64,000 nt of DNA, taken from assembly GCF_044647545.1 (NCBI RefSeq), contig NZ_CP172818.1, one strand, 5' to 3'. This DNA is from Escherichia coli. Lineage in GTDB: Bacteria; Pseudomonadota; Gammaproteobacteria; Enterobacterales; Enterobacteriaceae. Below the pieces are notes generated by a model that saw only the letters and a list, made by a program, of their open reading frames with translations, ran no database searches and was not told the origin of the DNA. Positions 7,246 to 60,510 of the stretch are shown here, in pieces (positions within the stretch are counted from its first letter, which is position 1; the number at the start of each line of letters is the position of its first letter). The position numbers were made by a program, and so were the translations under genes.

Positions 7246-8424
7246 TCAACGCGCCACCCACCCGAGGGTGCGCTGCGCCAGCACATCGCGTGCTGGGGTG
7301 AATAATTCCATTGCCATCAGCCCGATGTTGCGCCCGACAACCAGCGGCCCCCAACGGTTGGCAAAAAGATGTACAAGGCTGTCCGTGACGCCGATGGTTG
7401 CTTCGCGATCGCGCTGTCGACGCTGCTGATAACGGCACAATACGCCGTAATCACCCATGTCTTCTCCGCGCTCCTGCGCCTGAGTCAGGGTTTCCGCAAG
7501 GCTCATGACATCTCGCATACCGAGGTTGAACCCTTGCCCGGCAATCGGGTGCAGAGTTTGCGCCGCATTGCCCACCAGCACGGTACGATGGGTAATAGGT
7601 CTGGCGGCGCGGGTTAACGCCAGCGGATAAGCACTGCGTTTACCAGCGTGGGTAATTTTCCCAAGTCGCCAACCAAAGGCCGACTGGAGTTCACGGCAAA
7701 ACTTCTCGTCGCTCCAAGACAGTACCTCTTCGCGCCGTTCCAGTGGATGACACCAGACCAGCGAACAGCGTCCGTCAGACATCGGCAACATCGCCAGCGG
7801 GCCATATTGTGTAAAGCGTTCAAAAGCGCGCCCTTCATGCGCAACGGAAGTCGCAACGTTGGCAATCACAGCCAGTTGTTCGTAAGGCTCCTGCTGCCAG
7901 TCAACGCCGCACACGGTGGCTAACGCTGAATGGGTGCCATCAGCGGCTACCAGCACGCAGCCCGTCAGCGTCTCGCCACTCTCCAGCGTCACTTCAACGT
8001 GACTCTGAGTACGGGCAACGTTAGCCACGCGATCAGGACAATGCAGCGTTACGCCAGGTGCTTTGCGCAGCAATGCAAACAGCCGTTGCCCGACATTATG
8101 CAATTCGACAACCTGCCCCAGCGCCGCCAGTTGGTAATCTTCTGCGGCGAGGGTGACGAATCCGGCATGACCACGATCGCTGACATGCACGGTAGTGATG
8201 GCGGTTGCGCAATCAGCCAGAGATTGCCAGACGCCGATGCGCGCCAGTTGCTGACAGGTACCCGCCGCCAGCGCAATAGCCCGTCCATCAAAGCCCGGAT
8301 GAGCATGTGACTCTGGCGCAGTCGCTTCAATCAAATGTACCGGCAGCGCCCCGTGACTTAACCGGGAAATAGCCAGCGCCAGCGTCGCGCCCGCCATGCC
8401 GCCACCGACGATGATTACGCTCAT
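7246..8424 (-). CDS. ubiH: 2-octaprenyl-6-methoxyphenol hydroxylase
   Basis: 392-aa FAD monooxygenase, N-terminal IVGGGMAG; matches UbiH. Confidence 0.9.
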   Translation of the reverse strand: MSVIIVGGGMAGATLALAISRLSHGALPVHLIEATAPESHAHPGFDGRAIALAAGTCQQLARIGVWQSLADCATAITTVHVSDRGHAGFVTLAAEDYQLAALGQVVELHNVGQRLFALLRKAPGVTLHCPDRVANVARTQSHVEVTLESGETLTGCVLVAADGTHSALATVCGVDWQQEPYEQLAVIANVATSVAHEGRAFERFTQYGPLAMLPMSDGRCSLVWCHPLERREEVLSWSDEKFCRELQSAFGWRLGKITHAGKRSAYPLALTRAARPITHRTVLVGNAAQTLHPIAGQGFNLGMRDVMSLAETLTQAQERGEDMGDYGVLCRYQQRRQRDREATIGVTDSLVHLFANRWGPLVVGRNIGLMAMELFTPARDVLAQRTLGWVAR

Positions 8425-9746
8425 TGCTTTCTCGCAGCAGCCATCAACGCTTCGATTTCTTCCGGCTTTTTCACCACGCTGGCGGTGAGGTTTTCGTTGC
8501 CGGTTTCGGTAATCACAATGTCGTCTTCAATACGAATGCCGATACCGCGATATTGTTCTGGCACTTCTGCATCCGGCGCAATATACAGACCAGGCTCTAC
8601 GGTCAGTACCATCCCCGGTTCCAGAATACGCGAGCGATCCTGACCATAAACACCAACGTCATGAACATCCAGTCCTAACCAGTGGCTAAGGCCATGCATA
8701 AAGAAAGGACGATGGGCGTTCTGAGCGATCAGTTCATCAACATCACCTTTCAGGATGCCGAGTTTTACCAGGCCGCTAACCATGATGCGCACCACTTCAC
8801 CAGTGACTTCCTGCATGGAAGTTCCCGGACGATACAGCCGCAGGCTGGTTTCAAGAGACTCCAGCACAATGTCGTAGATTTCACGCTGGGCCAGGGTGAA
8901 TTTGCCGTTGACCGGGAAGGTGCGGGTAATATCGCCCGCGTAACCTTTGTATTCACAACCCGCGTCAATCAACACCAGGTCACCGTCGCGCAGTTCACTC
9001 TCGTTTTCGGTGTAGTGCAGAATGCAGCCATTTTCACCGCTGCCGACAATGGTGTTATAGGAAGGATAGCGCGCACCGTGGCGGTTAAATTCGTGGTGAA
9101 TTTCGCCTTCCAGGTGGTACTCGAACATTCCCGGACGGCATTTTTCCATCGCCCGGGTATGCGCCAGGGCGGTGATTTCCCCCGCGCGGCGAAGTACGGC
9201 AATCTCTTCTGGTGATTTGAACAGGCGCATTTCATGAACAATGGGACGCCAGTCGATCATCGTTGCCGGGGCAGTGAGATTCTGTCGCGAGCCTTTACGC
9301 AGCTTTTCCAGCGCGCTGTTCACGATTTCATCAGCATAGGTATATTCGCCCTGAGCGTGATAAACCACATCCAGACCATTAAGCAGTTGATAAAGTTGCT
9401 GATTGATTTCGCTGAATGCCAGTGCGCGGTCAACGCCCAGTTTCTCTGGCGCGGCATCCTGGCCTAAGCGACGACCAAACCAGATCTCTGCCGTCAGGTC
9501 GCGAACGCGGTTAAACAAAACGCTGTGGTTATGAGTGTCGTCGCTTTTAATCAGCACCAGCACCGCTTCCGGTTCGTTAAAGCCGGTGAAGTACCAGAAG
9601 TCACTGTTCTGACGATAGGGGTATTCGCTGTCGGCGCTACGTGTTACTTCTGGTGCAGCAAAAATCAGCGCGGCGCTGCCGGGTTGCATTTGCTCCACCA
9701 GGGCCTGACGGCGACGCTGAAACTCTTGCCGGGATATCTCACTCAT
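8421..9746 (-). CDS. pepP: Xaa-Pro aminopeptidase (aminopeptidase P)
   Basis: 441-aa product from MSEISRQEFQRRRQAL; M24 family; 4-bp overlap with ubiH. Confidence 0.95.
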   Translation of the reverse strand: MSEISRQEFQRRRQALVEQMQPGSAALIFAAPEVTRSADSEYPYRQNSDFWYFTGFNEPEAVLVLIKSDDTHNHSVLFNRVRDLTAEIWFGRRLGQDAAPEKLGVDRALAFSEINQQLYQLLNGLDVVYHAQGEYTYADEIVNSALEKLRKGSRQNLTAPATMIDWRPIVHEMRLFKSPEEIAVLRRAGEITALAHTRAMEKCRPGMFEYHLEGEIHHEFNRHGARYPSYNTIVGSGENGCILHYTENESELRDGDLVLIDAGCEYKGYAGDITRTFPVNGKFTLAQREIYDIVLESLETSLRLYRPGTSMQEVTGEVVRIMVSGLVKLGILKGDVDELIAQNAHRPFFMHGLSHWLGLDVHDVGVYGQDRSRILEPGMVLTVEPGLYIAPDAEVPEQYRGIGIRIEDDIVITETGNENLTASVVKKPEEIEALMAAARKQ

Positions 9747-10888: not shown

Positions 10889-11072
10889 ATTTCTCTGAGA
10901 TGTTCGCAAGCGGGCCAGTCCCCTGAGCCGATATTTCATACCACAAGAATGTGGCGCTCCGCGGTTGGTGAGCATGCTCGGTCCGTCCGAGAAGCCTTAA
11001 AACTGCGACGACACATTCACCTTGAACCAAGGGTTCAAGGGTTACAGCCTGCGGCGGCATCTCGGAGATTCC
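10889..11072 (+). ncRNA. ssrS: 6S RNA (RNA polymerase sigma70-holoenzyme regulator)
   Basis: Sequence atttctctgagatgttcgcaagcgggccagtcccctgagccgatatttcatacc...ggagattccc recognised as E. coli 6S RNA; -10-like tagagtaacc just upstream. Confidence 0.9.
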
Positions 11073-11695: not shown

Positions 11696-11754
11696 GGGCG
11701 ACACACCTGCATCGCCCTGATTGACATCGTTGATTCTTTAACCTAATTTAGTGA

Positions 11755-11897
11755 GTAAGGGTAAGGGAGGATGACTCCTCCCCTGAGACTGACTGTTAAT
11801 AAGCTGGGAAACTTATGAGTAACAGTACAATCAGTATGATGACAAGTCGCATCATAACCCTTCTCCTTCAAGCCCTCGCTTCGGTGAGGGCTTTACC
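11755..11897 (+). ncRNA. sibC: SibC antitoxin sRNA antisense to ibsC (boundaries approximate)
   Basis: Antisense to ibsC; ends at intrinsic terminator hairpin gccctcgc-ttcg-gtgagggc followed by ttt (11872-11894). Confidence 0.55.
11796..11855 (-). CDS. ibsC: Type I toxin IbsC (19-aa hydrophobic peptide)
   Basis: Minus-strand translation gives MMRLVIILIVLLLISFPAY*; too short for the ORF track. Confidence 0.8.
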   Translation of the reverse strand: MMRLVIILIVLLLISFPAY

Positions 11898-14287: not shown

Positions 14288-14518
14288 TCAGACCCCGTTG
14301 GCAAGCCGCGTGGTTAACTCATCCATAAAATATCGCGCAATGGCGGGCATCCCCTTTCGCCCGGCAAATAAAGCATACAACGGTCTGGGTATGCCGCTCC
14401 ACGGTGCAAACAGGCGCACCAGTTCACCGTTCGCAAGCCCCTGTTTACAGGCAAATTGAGGCAATAACGCCACGCCATTCAACCCAACCGGGACGCGAAC
14501 TCGCCGAGCAAAATGCAT
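14288..14518 (-). pseudogene. yqfE: C-terminal fragment of a LysR-family regulator
   Basis: 76-aa ORF resembling only the C-terminal tail of a LysR-type effector domain; no N-terminal HTH portion upstream. Confidence 0.6.
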
Positions 14519-14845: not shown

Positions 14846-15528
14846 CCCCTCTGTTTAACGGAAGCATGGAATTATTCCATGCTCCTCTGCCAAAATGAAA
14901 TAAAAAATGAAAAAAGCTAATCTTACAGGTACGTTGGTTTGCTTTGTCGCATGCCTTATTTTTTTGTCGTCCGGTGATATTTTTCGTGAAAAGCCAATCG
15001 CTCTAATATGGTTCCTTCGACAAAACATACTCTTTTTTACGGGAACTCTTGCGTGGTGTCTGATGACGCTGACGATGTGTTTATCGTTGCGTTCATCATG
15101 GCTTAACAAAGTGCTGGGCGGTCTGGATAAAGTATGGCGAATCACATAAGTGGGCAGGAATATGCGCCATAGCGTTTGCTTTCGCCCACTGGCTGGATGA
15201 AAAATTACCCCAGTTATTCGTCGCCTTTGGCTGGCTTACTCACCCTGGTAAAATCGTTGATATTAACCTGACGCCAGTACAAGAAAATTGGCTTCATGCG
15301 GGACTGTTAGCGGGTGAATGCGCAATGTTTATTATTATAGCGATGGTTTGCGTATCTCTTAGCAAAAGAGTTCCCTATCATTTATTTCATCTTGTTCACC
15401 GTTTGTTCCCCGTCTTTTATCTGGCAATTGCCTTTCATGTGTTTACTGCTTTGTTTAAATCATACTGGTGGAACTCCTGCTGCGTATTTATTAATTTTAA
15501 TTACTATTCCGGGCGTCTTTGCGGCTTT

Positions 15529-15537
15529 CATTTCGCT
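15529..15537. repeat. Left copy of 9-bp target-site duplication (catttcgct) flanking IS1
   Basis: Identical 9-mer directly abuts both IS1 ends. Confidence 0.85.
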
Positions 15538-36779: not shown

Positions 36780-37321
36780 TGAATTCTCACCTGTCGGCTA
36801 TTTTCTCCTTACCTCATGTGACATATTCCCCATTTTACTCAAAAAAAATTTATATAAAAGCACCTTTTTCATAAACCTTATTTCCCCCAAAAAAATCTTT
36901 TTTTATCCCTTTGGGCGTTTTTCCTGTTTTTTCCCCCTTTTTTTCTTTTTTACCCCTTAAAAAAAGGAACGCGGCATTTTTTTGCCCTACGAAAAAATCG
37001 TAAAATTTGCCGAGCCGGGTCTGGGTTTTAAGATCCCGTTTTTGAAAAGGGGAAAAAAATTTCCACCCGTAATAAGGCGGGGGTTTATCAGGGATTAAAG
37101 CCTTCAACCCCCCACCAGAAACCGGCAAAAAAAAAAATTGAGTGAGCTTCCACATAAAAAATTCAGAAAAAGGCGCGGTTTATACCACCTACAACACCAT
37201 TGAAGCATTAAAAGATCGTCTGATTGTCCGTCAGTTGCCAACTCAACTGGAGAATTCCCATATACATACAACTACAAAACAACAAACATAAACAAAACCC
37301 ACAAAAAAAAATATCTCTAAA
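36780..37321. other. Compositionally aberrant homopolymer-rich non-coding segment (origin unresolved; possible assembly/synthetic artefact)
   Basis: Dense runs of A7-11, T5-9, C5-6, G5; no credible ORF, RBS or RNA fold; cmtB-tktA spacer is ~885 bp here versus a few hundred bp as I recall for K-12. Confidence 0.5.
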
Positions 37322-40399: not shown

Positions 40400-40441
40400 T
40401 TTATTACGCCGGATTTGACGCATAACGCATCTTATCCGGGC

Positions 40442-41425: not shown

Positions 41426-41528
41426 AAGGGTTGGATTTGCGAAACACAAGTATGCGCTAATTATCGCCTTAAATGAAAAGAGGGCCGCATCAAGGACTAA
41501 CACAGGTCCCATACCACCAAACTCCAAC

Positions 41529-43542
<2,014 letters not shown>

Positions 43543-51143: not shown

Positions 51144-51559
51144 TGAGTGGAACCTTACTCGCCTTCGACTTCGGTACCAAAAGCATTGGTGTAGCGGTCG
51201 GCCAACGCATTACCGGCACCGCTCGCCCATTGCCTGCAATTAAAGCACAGGACGGTACGCCGGACTGGAATCTCATCGAACGTTTACTGAAAGAGTGGCA
51301 GCCGGACGAAATCATCGTTGGTTTGCCGCTGAATATGGATGGCACCGAGCAACCATTGACTGCCAGAGCCCGTAAATTTGCCAACCGTATTCATGGCCGT
51401 TTCGGTGTTGAAGTAAAGCTCCATGACGAGCGTCTTAGCACCGTGGAGGCACGTTCCGGTCTGTTTGAACAGGGCGGCTATCGGGCGCTCAACAAAGGCA
51501 AAGTTGACTCTGCCTCTGCGGTTATTATTCTCGAAAGCTATTTCGAGCAGGGATATTAA
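51143..51559 (+). CDS. ruvX: RuvC-like pre-16S rRNA nuclease / putative Holliday junction resolvase
   Basis: 138-aa product [30 protein letters not shown]...; start overlaps yqgE stop. Confidence 0.9.
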
Positions 51560-51564
51560 GGCGA

Positions 51565-51770
51565 TTTAAAAGCCTGGCGGATAGTCGTACCATCCCGCCA
51601 TCTTGCCGGATGCGGCGTGAACGCCTTATCCAGCACACATCTGGCAGCGGCTGTAGGTCTGATAAGACGCGTTAGCGTCGCATCAGACGTTTATTGCCGG
51701 GTGCTGCGTTTGTATGCCTGATAAGCGTAGCGCATCAGGCATATTTACTAAACTAATCAATCACTTTAGC
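51565..51770. repeat. REP/BIME cluster
   Basis: Palindromic units gccggatgcggcgtgaacgccttatccagc and gcctgataagcgtagcgcatcaggc. Confidence 0.8.
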
Positions 51771-56075: not shown

Positions 56076-57265
56076 TCATTAATGCCGCATGCGGCGTTAA
56101 TCACTTCTATAATAAATATAATTATATATTAAACATATATTAAAATAACACAACAATAATATTCTTCAATCAAAAATAAACAAAAACACACGATGAACCG
56201 AACAACATGCAAAAACAAATCACATCTCAAAAATTTATAACACTCTTCCCCTCCAACAACGAAAACAAAGAAAAATACGTTAAAAAACAAAAAATATCGA
56301 AACAGAAAAACGAAAAAAAAATAAAGTAATGAATCACCACACGAGAACAAGAAAAAAACAACAAAATATATACTAATAACACAGTAGGAAAGGAATAAGA
56401 ATCAACAAAGAAATTTTTACCATCATCAAACGATAACAAACAACCGAAGAGGGAGATAGTTGCCACACCGACACAGAACATCTCTCCACATCACAACAAT
56501 AACAGGTAGCGGAGCACCCCCAATAACCAAAACACAGACCCATACTTGACAACCAGAACAAAAAAACACAACGACAAAAACCAAACAACGAAGAATGAAA
56601 AATGATAAAGAAGAAATTGAATAATTAACACTATCACCCCTACATCAAACTAGAAAAGAAATCGTTGTTAGATATGCGCGGTGTGGTGGTCCTGTGATGC
56701 GCGAACTAGGCGTGACGCCTTTTCTGTCGCCGTCATGCTTGCTCTGGTTGTATGCGTAGTCTGATAAGACGCTCCAAACCACAAAAGCACAGCATCCCAT
56801 TCAGACCAAAGAAGGTTATGATTGCCGGCATTTTCTACCGCTGTCAACGTCTCATCTTGTTATAACTGGATTACTGATACCGCCCTCAAACGTGTTAATT
56901 GTTTTTCCCTACACTGCGCGTTTCTAGCACGCTATTAGCGGGATATGCAAGGGACTAAGAGTCGCGGTAAAAACCGGCATATCAAACGCGGCTACCCGCT
57001 TCAGAAAAAGCAACCTCCAGGCCTAAAGCGTTCGACCTACCAAGTTCTCGTCAAGGCGGCATCGGCGGCATTTTACGCAACGAAGGCCGATCTTCACAAT
57101 TATGATTACCGGGAATAAAATCGCGATTTACCCAAACGATCGAACGGTTACAAATAATTCGCACCGCAAACCAACAATCCAAAAACTAGGATTCAAACCC
57201 ACCAAATAAAAAAAAAAAAAAAAAGGAAAAACAAAAAAAAAAACAACAAAAAAAAAAAAAAGAAA
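56076..57265. other. ~1.2 kb non-coding segment of aberrant composition: A/C-rich block (~56100-56640), ORF-free block with REP-like fragment (~56640-57180), A-rich tail (57181-57265)
   Basis: Strong strand-asymmetric A+C bias with very little G/T in the first block; runs A17, A11, A14 abutting yggM stop; only low-complexity ORFs in the track; hemW-yggM spacer is <100 bp in K-12 as I recall. Confidence 0.5.
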
Positions 57266-59611: not shown

Positions 59612-60331
59612 TTATTTTAAATTCCCGACCAGGGCTTTGCGACTATCTTCCAGAGTCACAACGCGGCTACAAACATCTTTGCCAAACTGTTGGAAATCTT
59701 TTTCCTGCTTTTTCCATTCGGTTTGGATTGAGGATTGCAGACCGCCCAGGCTTCCCAGCACATTCTGTAATGGGTTACCACCGCTTTTCAGCACCGCTTT
59801 CGCACCCATTTCATTAATGCTGTCCTGTAAAATTCCGCCCATTGCCTGATTCACTAATTGCTGGCCTTCGGCGCGAACCTGATCAATGGCTTTATAGTGG
59901 AACGTCAGGCCATCGCTGCGCGTTTCGATAATGCGGTTCATCTGCTCTTTCAGCTGCGCATCAAGTTTGGTCAGACGGCTGCGCATTTTGCTGCTTTCGC
60001 CCATCTCCTGAACGATAATTTTATCCAGCGCAATACGGGCTTTTTCGACGCGGCTTTTCGCGCCTTCATCAATCCACGGCAGGGTGCTACGGAGTTCAGC
60101 CTGATAATCCTTCGCCTGCTCGCGCTGGGCGGCATTCAGGGAATATTGCTTACCGTTATACATCACGTTGCCGTCTGGCGTGATCACCAGATTGCCGTTT
60201 TCGCCCTTCACCTGCACGGTTTGCGGGCTGACAATCACATCGTCACGCGGCGTGACGCTGCACTGGTAGTCGGCGTGAGCGGTCATTGCCGTCACTGAAA
60301 GTGCTGCCGCCAGCAGCATTTTGCGCATCAT
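59612..60331 (-). CDS. yggN: Periplasmic DUF2884 protein YggN
   Basis: 239-aa product with signal peptide MMRKMLLAAALSVTAMTAHA. Confidence 0.85.
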   Translation of the reverse strand: MMRKMLLAAALSVTAMTAHADYQCSVTPRDDVIVSPQTVQVKGENGNLVITPDGNVMYNGKQYSLNAAQREQAKDYQAELRSTLPWIDEGAKSRVEKARIALDKIIVQEMGESSKMRSRLTKLDAQLKEQMNRIIETRSDGLTFHYKAIDQVRAEGQQLVNQAMGGILQDSINEMGAKAVLKSGGNPLQNVLGSLGGLQSSIQTEWKKQEKDFQQFGKDVCSRVVTLEDSRKALVGNLK

Positions 60332-60339
60332 AGTCTTCC

Positions 60340-60510
60340 CTCAAGAACAAATCAGGCCAGCATTTGCTGGCCCCAGATTGATAACAAAGTGCGCGTTTTC
60401 CATGCCGGATGCGGCGTAAACGCCTTATCCAGCCTACTCGATCGTGCATCTTTATAGGCCTGATAAGCGTAGCACATCAGGCAGTTTTGCATTTGTCATC
60501 GCCCGTATGT
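60340..60510. repeat. REP/BIME cluster
   Basis: gccggatgcggcgtaaacgccttatccagcc and gcctgataagcgtagcacatcaggc palindromic units. Confidence 0.8.

Follow-up and report, generated by a model that had tools for sequence, protein, structure and literature searches.

Two spacers in this stretch of the Escherichia coli chromosome, one between ruvX and yggR and the other between yggN and yggL, very probably carry genuine E. coli repetitive extragenic palindromes (REPs) of the y, z1 and z2 classes, organized in BIMEs. The same high confidence covers the account that goes with this identification, in which REP hairpins would act as barriers to exonucleases and differences between strains would come from the gain, loss and replacement of REP units. 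Both clusters are of an already known kind, with a literature on REPs and BIMEs that goes back about 40 years.

Genomic setting and identity of the repeat units

The window, that is, the whole stretch of 64,000 nucleotides that was analyzed, is E. coli chromosome, and its 41.6–56.1 kb and 57.3–64 kb portions are 99.9–100% identical to strain FDAARGOS_497 (NZ_CP033850.1). The original prediction had placed the palindromic clusters in the ruvX-yggR and yggN-yggL spacers, and these gene names agree with the annotations of both FDAARGOS_497 and K-12. By annotation, ruvX (also named yqgF) has its 3′ end at 51559 and is convergent on yggR, which extends from 51772 on the minus strand; yggN (59612–60331) and yggL (from 60515) both lie on the minus strand, with yggL upstream of yggN. 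The ranges first assigned to the repeats, 51565–51770 and 60340–60510, are essentially the entire spacers, whereas the REPs proper are confined to 51605–51740 (cluster A) and 60404–60482 (cluster B).

Elsewhere in the window, 1,346 bp of FDAARGOS_497 from the LysR-regulator/azoreductase region are absent at 14480/14481, and 463 nt of ordinary-looking sequence at 15075–15537 stand where FDAARGOS_497 has an IS1 insertion. These two differences look like normal strain variation.

Pattern scanning of the window located each unit type. The y pattern GCCGGATGCGGCGTRAACGCCTTATCC matches at 51605–51631 and 60404–60430, the z1 pattern GCCTGATAAGCGTAGCRCATCAGGC at 51716–51740 and 60458–60482, and the z2 pattern CTGATAAGACGCGNNAGCGTCGCATCAG once, at 51659–51686, which adds a unit type to the two that had been noticed before. 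With up to three mismatches allowed, none of the three patterns gave a chance match in 100 dinucleotide shuffles each. The two clusters had been said to hold near-identical palindromic units: all of the strings quoted for them are present, and the copies in clusters A and B are one base apart, differing at 1/30 bases in the y unit and 1/25 in z1.

Structure prediction gives a consistent picture. All five units fold into hairpins on both strands, with energies of −11.8 to −20 kcal/mol and z-scores of −3.5 to −6.7, and in each predicted fold a two-base internal mismatch separates an outer 7-bp stem from an inner stem of 2–5 bp. When whole spacers are folded as RNA, every REP stays a separate hairpin. 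These five are the complete REP hairpins of the 64 kb, all of them in clusters A and B; neither a loose arm-motif scan nor the REP-derived Rfam model found a further complete REP in the same 64 kb. A hairpin at 40408–40440 in the loiP-speB spacer (GCCGGATTTGACGCATAACGCATCTTATCCGGG) has y-REP-like arms and a different core, and it may be either a REP that has diverged or a terminator that serves two convergent genes in both directions.

The search patterns were derived from the strings of the original prediction itself, and independent anchors were therefore sought. The first is Rfam naRNA4 (RF02564), a model of y, linker and z2 built from REP325. Within the 64 kb it matches at clusters A and B only, and in the alignment to its consensus the y and z2 units each fall on one of the two hairpins. 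Its best scores (37.6, 37.6 and 37.4 bits) do not reach the gathering threshold of 59.5; matches of this kind indicate homology through shared REP modules and not family membership by the Rfam rule. Two RNAs expected in the region do score over their Rfam gathering scores: 6S RNA (ssrS) at 10889–11072 (139.8 bits) and a Sib antitoxin RNA at 11721–11871 (136.5 bits), beside the ibsC toxin gene.

Further anchors come from a known REP structure, from copy number and from location. The y unit of cluster B agrees at 30 of 32 positions with the REP crystallized with the E. coli REP-associated transposase (GTAGGACGGATAAGGCGTTTACGCCGCATCCG). A 146-nt query from cluster A hits at least 40 places per genome in 5,425 E. 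coli genomes, and both clusters are extragenic, lying in spacers between annotated genes. Together with the naRNA4 matches and the stem mismatch, these observations bear out the earlier statement that the palindromes are ordinary E. coli REPs; when tested, the units fit the y/z consensus and are multi-copy in E. coli genomes. The copy of the K-12 RefSeq record that was consulted lists no curated REP features. In a test for a REPtron, no Y1-transposase gene (RAYT/tnpA_REP) was found annotated beside cluster A or B; an adjacent transposase gene is not required for ordinary dispersed REPs.

Short palindromic repeats that recur in intergenic DNA could also suggest a small or degenerate CRISPR array, and the earlier statement that these are not CRISPR repeats deserves a check on this account. 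Neither locus has a head-to-tail array. Neighboring units are inverted and belong to different classes, each locus holds only 2–3 of them at irregular spacing, no cas genes lie nearby, and the same units are dispersed genome-wide. A CRISPR origin has practically no chance of being correct, and the statement stands. For annotation, the value of identifying the REPs is that it guards against labeling the clusters as terminators, new RNA genes or CRISPR arrays.

The vocabulary for the anatomy of the clusters follows Ton-Hoang et al. 2012 (PMC3333891), where the y/z1/z2 classes, the 5′ GTAG, the stem mismatch, BIME-1, BIME-2 and the atypical BIME are defined. Cluster A lies between convergent genes and reads, on the plus strand of 51605–51740: y, z2, a truncated y arm, z1. 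Its y-type REP (51605–51638; stem 51605–51634) is an iREP on the plus strand and ends 3′ in ACAC, where the canonical sequence is CTAC. The stem contains one C·A mismatch, with ATCCAGC instead of ATCCGGC, and other alleles have ATCCGGCCTAC. A 14-nt linker at 51639–51652 (ATCTGGCAGCGGCT) leads to the z2-type REP (51653–51688), which has an intact 5′ GTAG at 51653–51656 followed by a stem at 51657–51688, and which aligns to the naRNA4 z2 hairpin. The truncated left arm of a y-REP follows at 51694–51709 (TTGCCGGGTGCTGCGT), 88% identical to 51603–51618; 10 bp of it are absent from K-12-type alleles. In the z1-type REP (51712–51740; stem 51716–51740), GTAT replaces GTAG. Counted from 51743, the base of the extended stem, this unit follows the yggR stop codon at a distance of 28 nt. 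Because the intervening y is truncated, the z2 and z1 units of cluster A have the same orientation. By the definitions of PMC3333891, cluster A is an atypical BIME, a chimera of y, z1 and z2. A literature search for yggR/yqgF together with REP gave nothing specific to this locus.

Cluster B is simpler. Its y-type REP occupies 60404–60437, with a stem at 60404–60433 followed by CTAC at 60434–60437, which is an intact GTAG on the minus strand. A linker of 16 nt (60438–60453, TCGATCGTGCATCTTT), in which there is no IHF consensus site, joins it to a z1-type REP at 60454–60482. This unit carries ATAG for GTAG, has its stem at 60458–60482, and follows the yggL stop codon by 32 nt.

Thus the GTAG/CTAC foot is exact in two of the five units, z2 of cluster A and y of cluster B. 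It is degenerate in y of cluster A (ACAC), z1 of cluster A (GTAT) and z1 of cluster B (ATAG); CTAC and GTAG are present in other alleles of the two cluster-A units. Since transposase binding needs GTAG and only 2/5 units keep it intact, current mobility is doubtful.

Variation between strains and the A/C-rich segments

Cluster A differs strongly between strains: the 10 E. coli alleles compared take at least five architectures. The window has y-z2-y′-z1. K-12, O157 and others have y-z2-z1′, which lacks 10 bp of the y remnant and has another right flank; in EC25 this same y-z2-z1′ layout has lost the left arm of y. Strain 4/0 has half a y fused to z1 in a spacer of only 114 bp, and SF-468 and GPEC657 have y, a 31-nt linker and z1′. 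The allele of the window is found at 99% identity or above in 173/5,441 records, about 3% of complete genomes.

Stem pairing is largely kept through this variation. Across the 10 alleles, 96.9% of stem cells are paired, compared with 25–42% when the partners are slid by 1–3 columns. Four stem pairs are altered on both sides; among them, GCCGGAT/ATCCGGC has become GTTGGAT/ATCCAAC and GCCTGAT/ATCAGGC has become GCCCGAT/ATCGGGC. Over ten related sequences this is modest support, and substitution of units by REP copies from elsewhere could explain it just as well as selection on the structure. The variation as a whole would result from REP gain, loss and replacement, brought about by RAYT or by recombination between REP copies.

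It might be asked whether cluster A is an active mobile BIME that the transposase is still remodeling in this lineage, and not a relic. The allele series, with its loss, truncation and replacement of units in at least five forms among ten alleles, is what such activity would leave; the transposase cleaves and recombines BIMEs in vitro, the number of BIMEs per locus varies between strains (PMC3333891), and z2 of cluster A retains both GTAG and the stem mismatch. Two of the three cluster-A units, however, have a degenerate foot (ACAC and GTAT), and mutation of GTAG abolishes both binding and cleavage (PMC3333891). The alleles also fall into few discrete types, fitting an old polymorphism combined with homologous recombination. 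Ongoing remodeling by the transposase is therefore unlikely. Cluster A offers a natural series of BIME alleles (loss, truncation, replacement and stem-preserving double changes) that is handy for the study of REP turnover.

Cluster B is conserved. It is present at equal length and 95–100% identity in 5,348/5,426 E. coli genomes, and the y-linker-z1-terminator layout is kept in E. albertii, E. whittamii and Escherichia sp. E1V33. Nearly fixed in E. coli, it would be an old insertion. In E. albertii, changes in the inner stem of the y unit leave G·U pairs on the non-transcribed strand only; these were considered as covariation support and, for that reason, not counted. In Escherichia sp. MOD1-EC7003, from a cryptic clade, the yggN-yggL spacer (approximately 725–947 of the piece compared) holds an expanded and different set of REPs instead of the y-linker-z1 pair. 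This is the sole genome examined with a remodeled cluster B.

The hemW-yggM spacer touches the subject of REPs in two ways. In K-12 (8405–8558 of the K-12 piece compared), this spacer has no TRAP genes and holds a y-z2-y′ BIME closely paralogous to cluster A: its y and z2 are joined by the cluster-A linker with 3 substitutions, and linker and z2 are near-identical to those of cluster A. As the K-12 BIME stands where the TRAP operon is absent, the presence/absence polymorphism of the operon coincides with a BIME site.

In the window, the same spacer contains a segment of about 1.19 kb (56109–57265) that follows the 3.2-kb TRAP-transporter operon of FDAARGOS_497 collinearly, in collapsed form. 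In the alignable blocks the differences are mainly dropped G and T bases. Elsewhere the segment is A/C-rich and of low complexity, with long poly-A runs and a poly-A end, GC content down to 0.28 and an AT-skew of +0.6. No full-length match to it exists among 5,426 complete E. coli genomes. The comparison with the operon rests on BLAST-supported blocks only. A global alignment with cheap gaps between the 56–57 kb segment and the operon was rejected as unreliable in the low-complexity parts, in that any A-rich string threads through a 3.2-kb reference.

Two shorter stretches are of similar appearance. At 37255–37311, 57 nt of A/C-rich sequence with poly-A replace 487 bp of the closest reference, the 3′ part of a prohibitin-family gene; at 41476–41565, 90 A/C-rich nt ending in about 35 A's replace 900 bp of the reference, a hypothetical gene between speB and speA. 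All three share one signature, which looks like sequence corruption and not biology. Collapsed A/C-rich segments of this kind are a matter of data quality, and biological interpretation of them is inadvisable.

The original prediction had also reported a fragment resembling a REP half-site within this segment. The string is indeed there: the 13-mer TCTGATAAGACGC recurs exactly at 56760–56772 (+) and matches the left arm of z2, with 0.06 occurrences expected by chance. Its REP status did not hold up, as there is no second arm, that is, no complementary right arm downstream of 56760–56772. The 13-mer starts inside homology to the TRAP small permease and runs past its end; the 51 nt before it, which include GTAGTCTG, are 96% identical to the TRAP small-permease coding sequence of FDAARGOS_497. 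At the junction FDAARGOS_497 continues with GTAGTCTGGCAAG and the window with GTAGTCTGATAAGACGC. The junction 32-mer (56745–56776) has no exact match in public metagenome and genome collections, a result that is uninformative alone and consistent with an artifact.

These data bear on whether the 13-mer is a remnant of a real REP, for example of the K-12 hemW-yggM BIME. The exact 13/13 agreement with the z2 left arm, at 0.06 expected by chance, and the y-z2-y′ BIME that K-12 carries in this very spacer speak for a remnant. Against it are the missing right arm, the preceding 51 nt of TRAP small-permease sequence, the position inside a collapsed, G/T-depleted copy of the TRAP operon of 1.19 kb that is absent from 5,426 complete E. 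coli genomes, and the absence of the junction 32-mer from the public collections. A REP origin of the 13-mer is quite improbable.

Transcription across the two spacers

Each REP unit folds to its own stable hairpin in transcripts of either strand. REP hairpins have been described as barriers to 3′-to-5′ exonucleases (Newbury et al. 1987 and Khemici and Carpousis 2004, as cited in PMC12306157). By the properties of the family, the hairpins of clusters A and B would hinder such exonucleases and in this way stabilize the upstream mRNA or decay intermediates. The transcript evidence that follows comes from K-12 and Shigella, not from the strain of the window.

For cluster A, Term-seq and Rho mapping in K-12 (Adams et al. 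2021, PMC7815308) has no curated 3′ end in the equivalent of the spacer. It places a Rho-termination region at 3,094,341(+), about 240 nt into sequence antisense to yggR (Rho score 3.04, p = 5.7e-11). Since this region lies beyond the spacer and no 3′ end lies inside it, the yqgE-ruvX transcript reads through the BIME.

For cluster B, the same data set has a sole dominant 3′ end in the K-12 spacer, at 3,101,642(-), with scores of 175,128 and 231,175; it is not Rho-dependent and has a terminator score of 11.0 (Adams et al. 2021). This position corresponds to 60350 of the window, four nt past a hairpin at 60354–60373 that is not a REP. The hairpin belongs to an intrinsic terminator on the minus strand (60340–60373), which consists of an 8-bp GC-rich stem-loop (60373–60354) and the tail GAUUUGUUCUUGAG (GAUUUUUUCUUGAG in K-12). 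As the 3′ end falls at this separate terminator, the yggL 3′ UTR encloses the cluster-B REPs; that is, they lie within the 3′ UTR of the trmB-yggL transcript, with the intrinsic terminator downstream of them. The terminator adjoins the yggN ribosome-binding site, directly upstream of it, and the hairpin ends about 22 nt before the yggN start codon. Its U-tract (60340–60353, minus strand) reads GAUUUGUUCUU in the window versus GAUUUUUUCUU in K-12, a T-to-G change that turns UUUUUU into UUUGUU and, from the sequence, could weaken termination. Transcription of yggN may depend on read-through or on a promoter within the spacer itself.

GC-rich hairpins 28–45 nt past stop codons, as the REPs are, could in principle be the Rho-independent terminators of ruvX, yggR and yggL themselves. 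None of them is followed by a T-run, and a terminator scan found no terminator-like site at any REP. In K-12, none of the dominant 3′ ends mapped by Term-seq falls at a REP: transcription passes through spacer A as far as the Rho site, and the actual terminator of spacer B is the separate hairpin. Moreover, ordinary terminators are not sequences that occur at 40 or more places per genome. It is very improbable that the REPs serve as these terminators, and the barrier role of the family remains the preferred account of what they do in transcripts.

When a REP lies no more than 15 nt from a stop codon, it stalls ribosomes (Liang et al. 2015, as summarized in PMC12306157). Translational down-regulation by stop-proximal REPs was considered on this basis and ruled out; the hairpins stand at 45, 28 and 32 nt from the stop codons, all distances above 15 nt.

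At the DNA level, BIMEs made of y and z2 are the class preferentially cleaved by gyrase (PMC6379681). By family resemblance, the y+z2 pair of cluster A would belong to this class of DNA, bound and cleaved by gyrase. None of the names yggR, yqgF, yggM, yggN and yggL occurs in those supplements of PMC6379681 that were searched.

The probable CssrE counterpart and comparison with known systems

CssrE is an sRNA of about 140 nt from Shigella flexneri 301, confirmed by Northern blot (Peng et al. 2011, PMC3071730, Table 1). It is located between yggN and yggL on the strand of both genes, and its 3′ end is at a rho-independent terminator (PMC3071730). The name of the Rfam naRNA4 family, RF02564, includes CssrE. 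The spacer, the strand and the terminator that define this locus are all matched by cluster B. We infer that cluster B is the E. coli counterpart of CssrE from flanking genes, strand, size and terminator. The equivalent RNA would run on the minus strand from about 60489 to 60350, approximately 140 nt of yggL 3′ UTR that comprise the z1, y and terminator hairpins. Its 5′ end is an estimate from the Northern size in Shigella: 140 nt counted back from 60350 lead to about 60489, just 5′ of z1. The barrier effect of the REPs in cluster B would leave such a stable three-hairpin RNA of about 140 nt, reported from Shigella as CssrE. In this way cluster B ties a conserved pair of REPs to CssrE, and also to a 3′ end that ranks among the stronger 'orphan' ends of the K-12 Term-seq data. 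A literature search found CssrE detected in 2011 and no later characterization of it.

A more far-reaching proposal is that the fixed pair of cluster B, together with its terminator, encodes an abundant RNA with two REP hairpins, CssrE, that has a function of its own and is not a mere decay intermediate. The function might be HU-dependent bridging of cruciform DNA, as for naRNA4, or that of a regulatory RNA derived from a 3′ UTR. In naRNA4, two hairpins plus HU suffice to bridge cruciform DNA, independently of sequence (PMC4550694). The proposal for the RNA of cluster B rests on this result. Overall, a function of its own is unlikely.

Comparison with naRNA4 proper shows a difference in arrangement. 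That RNA comes from REP325 (yjdM-yjdN) and has y followed by z2, whereas cluster B has z1 followed by y on the transcribed strand. As for CssrE, the spacer, the strand, the rho-independent 3′ end and a length of about 140 nt that covers z1, y and the terminator are as in cluster B, and K-12 has a very strong 3′ end at the equivalent site.

Among the BIME types, BIME-1, also known as RIP/RIB elements, consists of y and z1 with a long L linker that frequently carries an IHF site. Cluster B shares with it the y and z1 composition, the single copy and the inverted units. An assignment of cluster B as an IHF-binding BIME-1 (RIP) was rejected, with a linker of only 16 nt and no match to WATCAANNNNTTR in either spacer. 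Cluster A resembles BIME-2 in its inverted y/z2 pair with a short linker; it differs in having one such pair with a 14-nt linker and no tandem copies, followed by the truncated y and z1.

At the level of single units, all five share with the E. coli REP/PU classes y, z1 and z2 (Bachellier/Gilson nomenclature) the stems of 25–32 nt, the mismatch, the foot, the location, the copy number and the sequence. Differences from the family are minor: GTAG carries 1–2 substitutions in three units, and ATCCAGC stands for ATCCGGC in both y units, which gives one C·A mismatch on the plus strand and a G·U pair in RNA of the minus strand. Nothing essential separates the five units from the REP family of E. 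coli.
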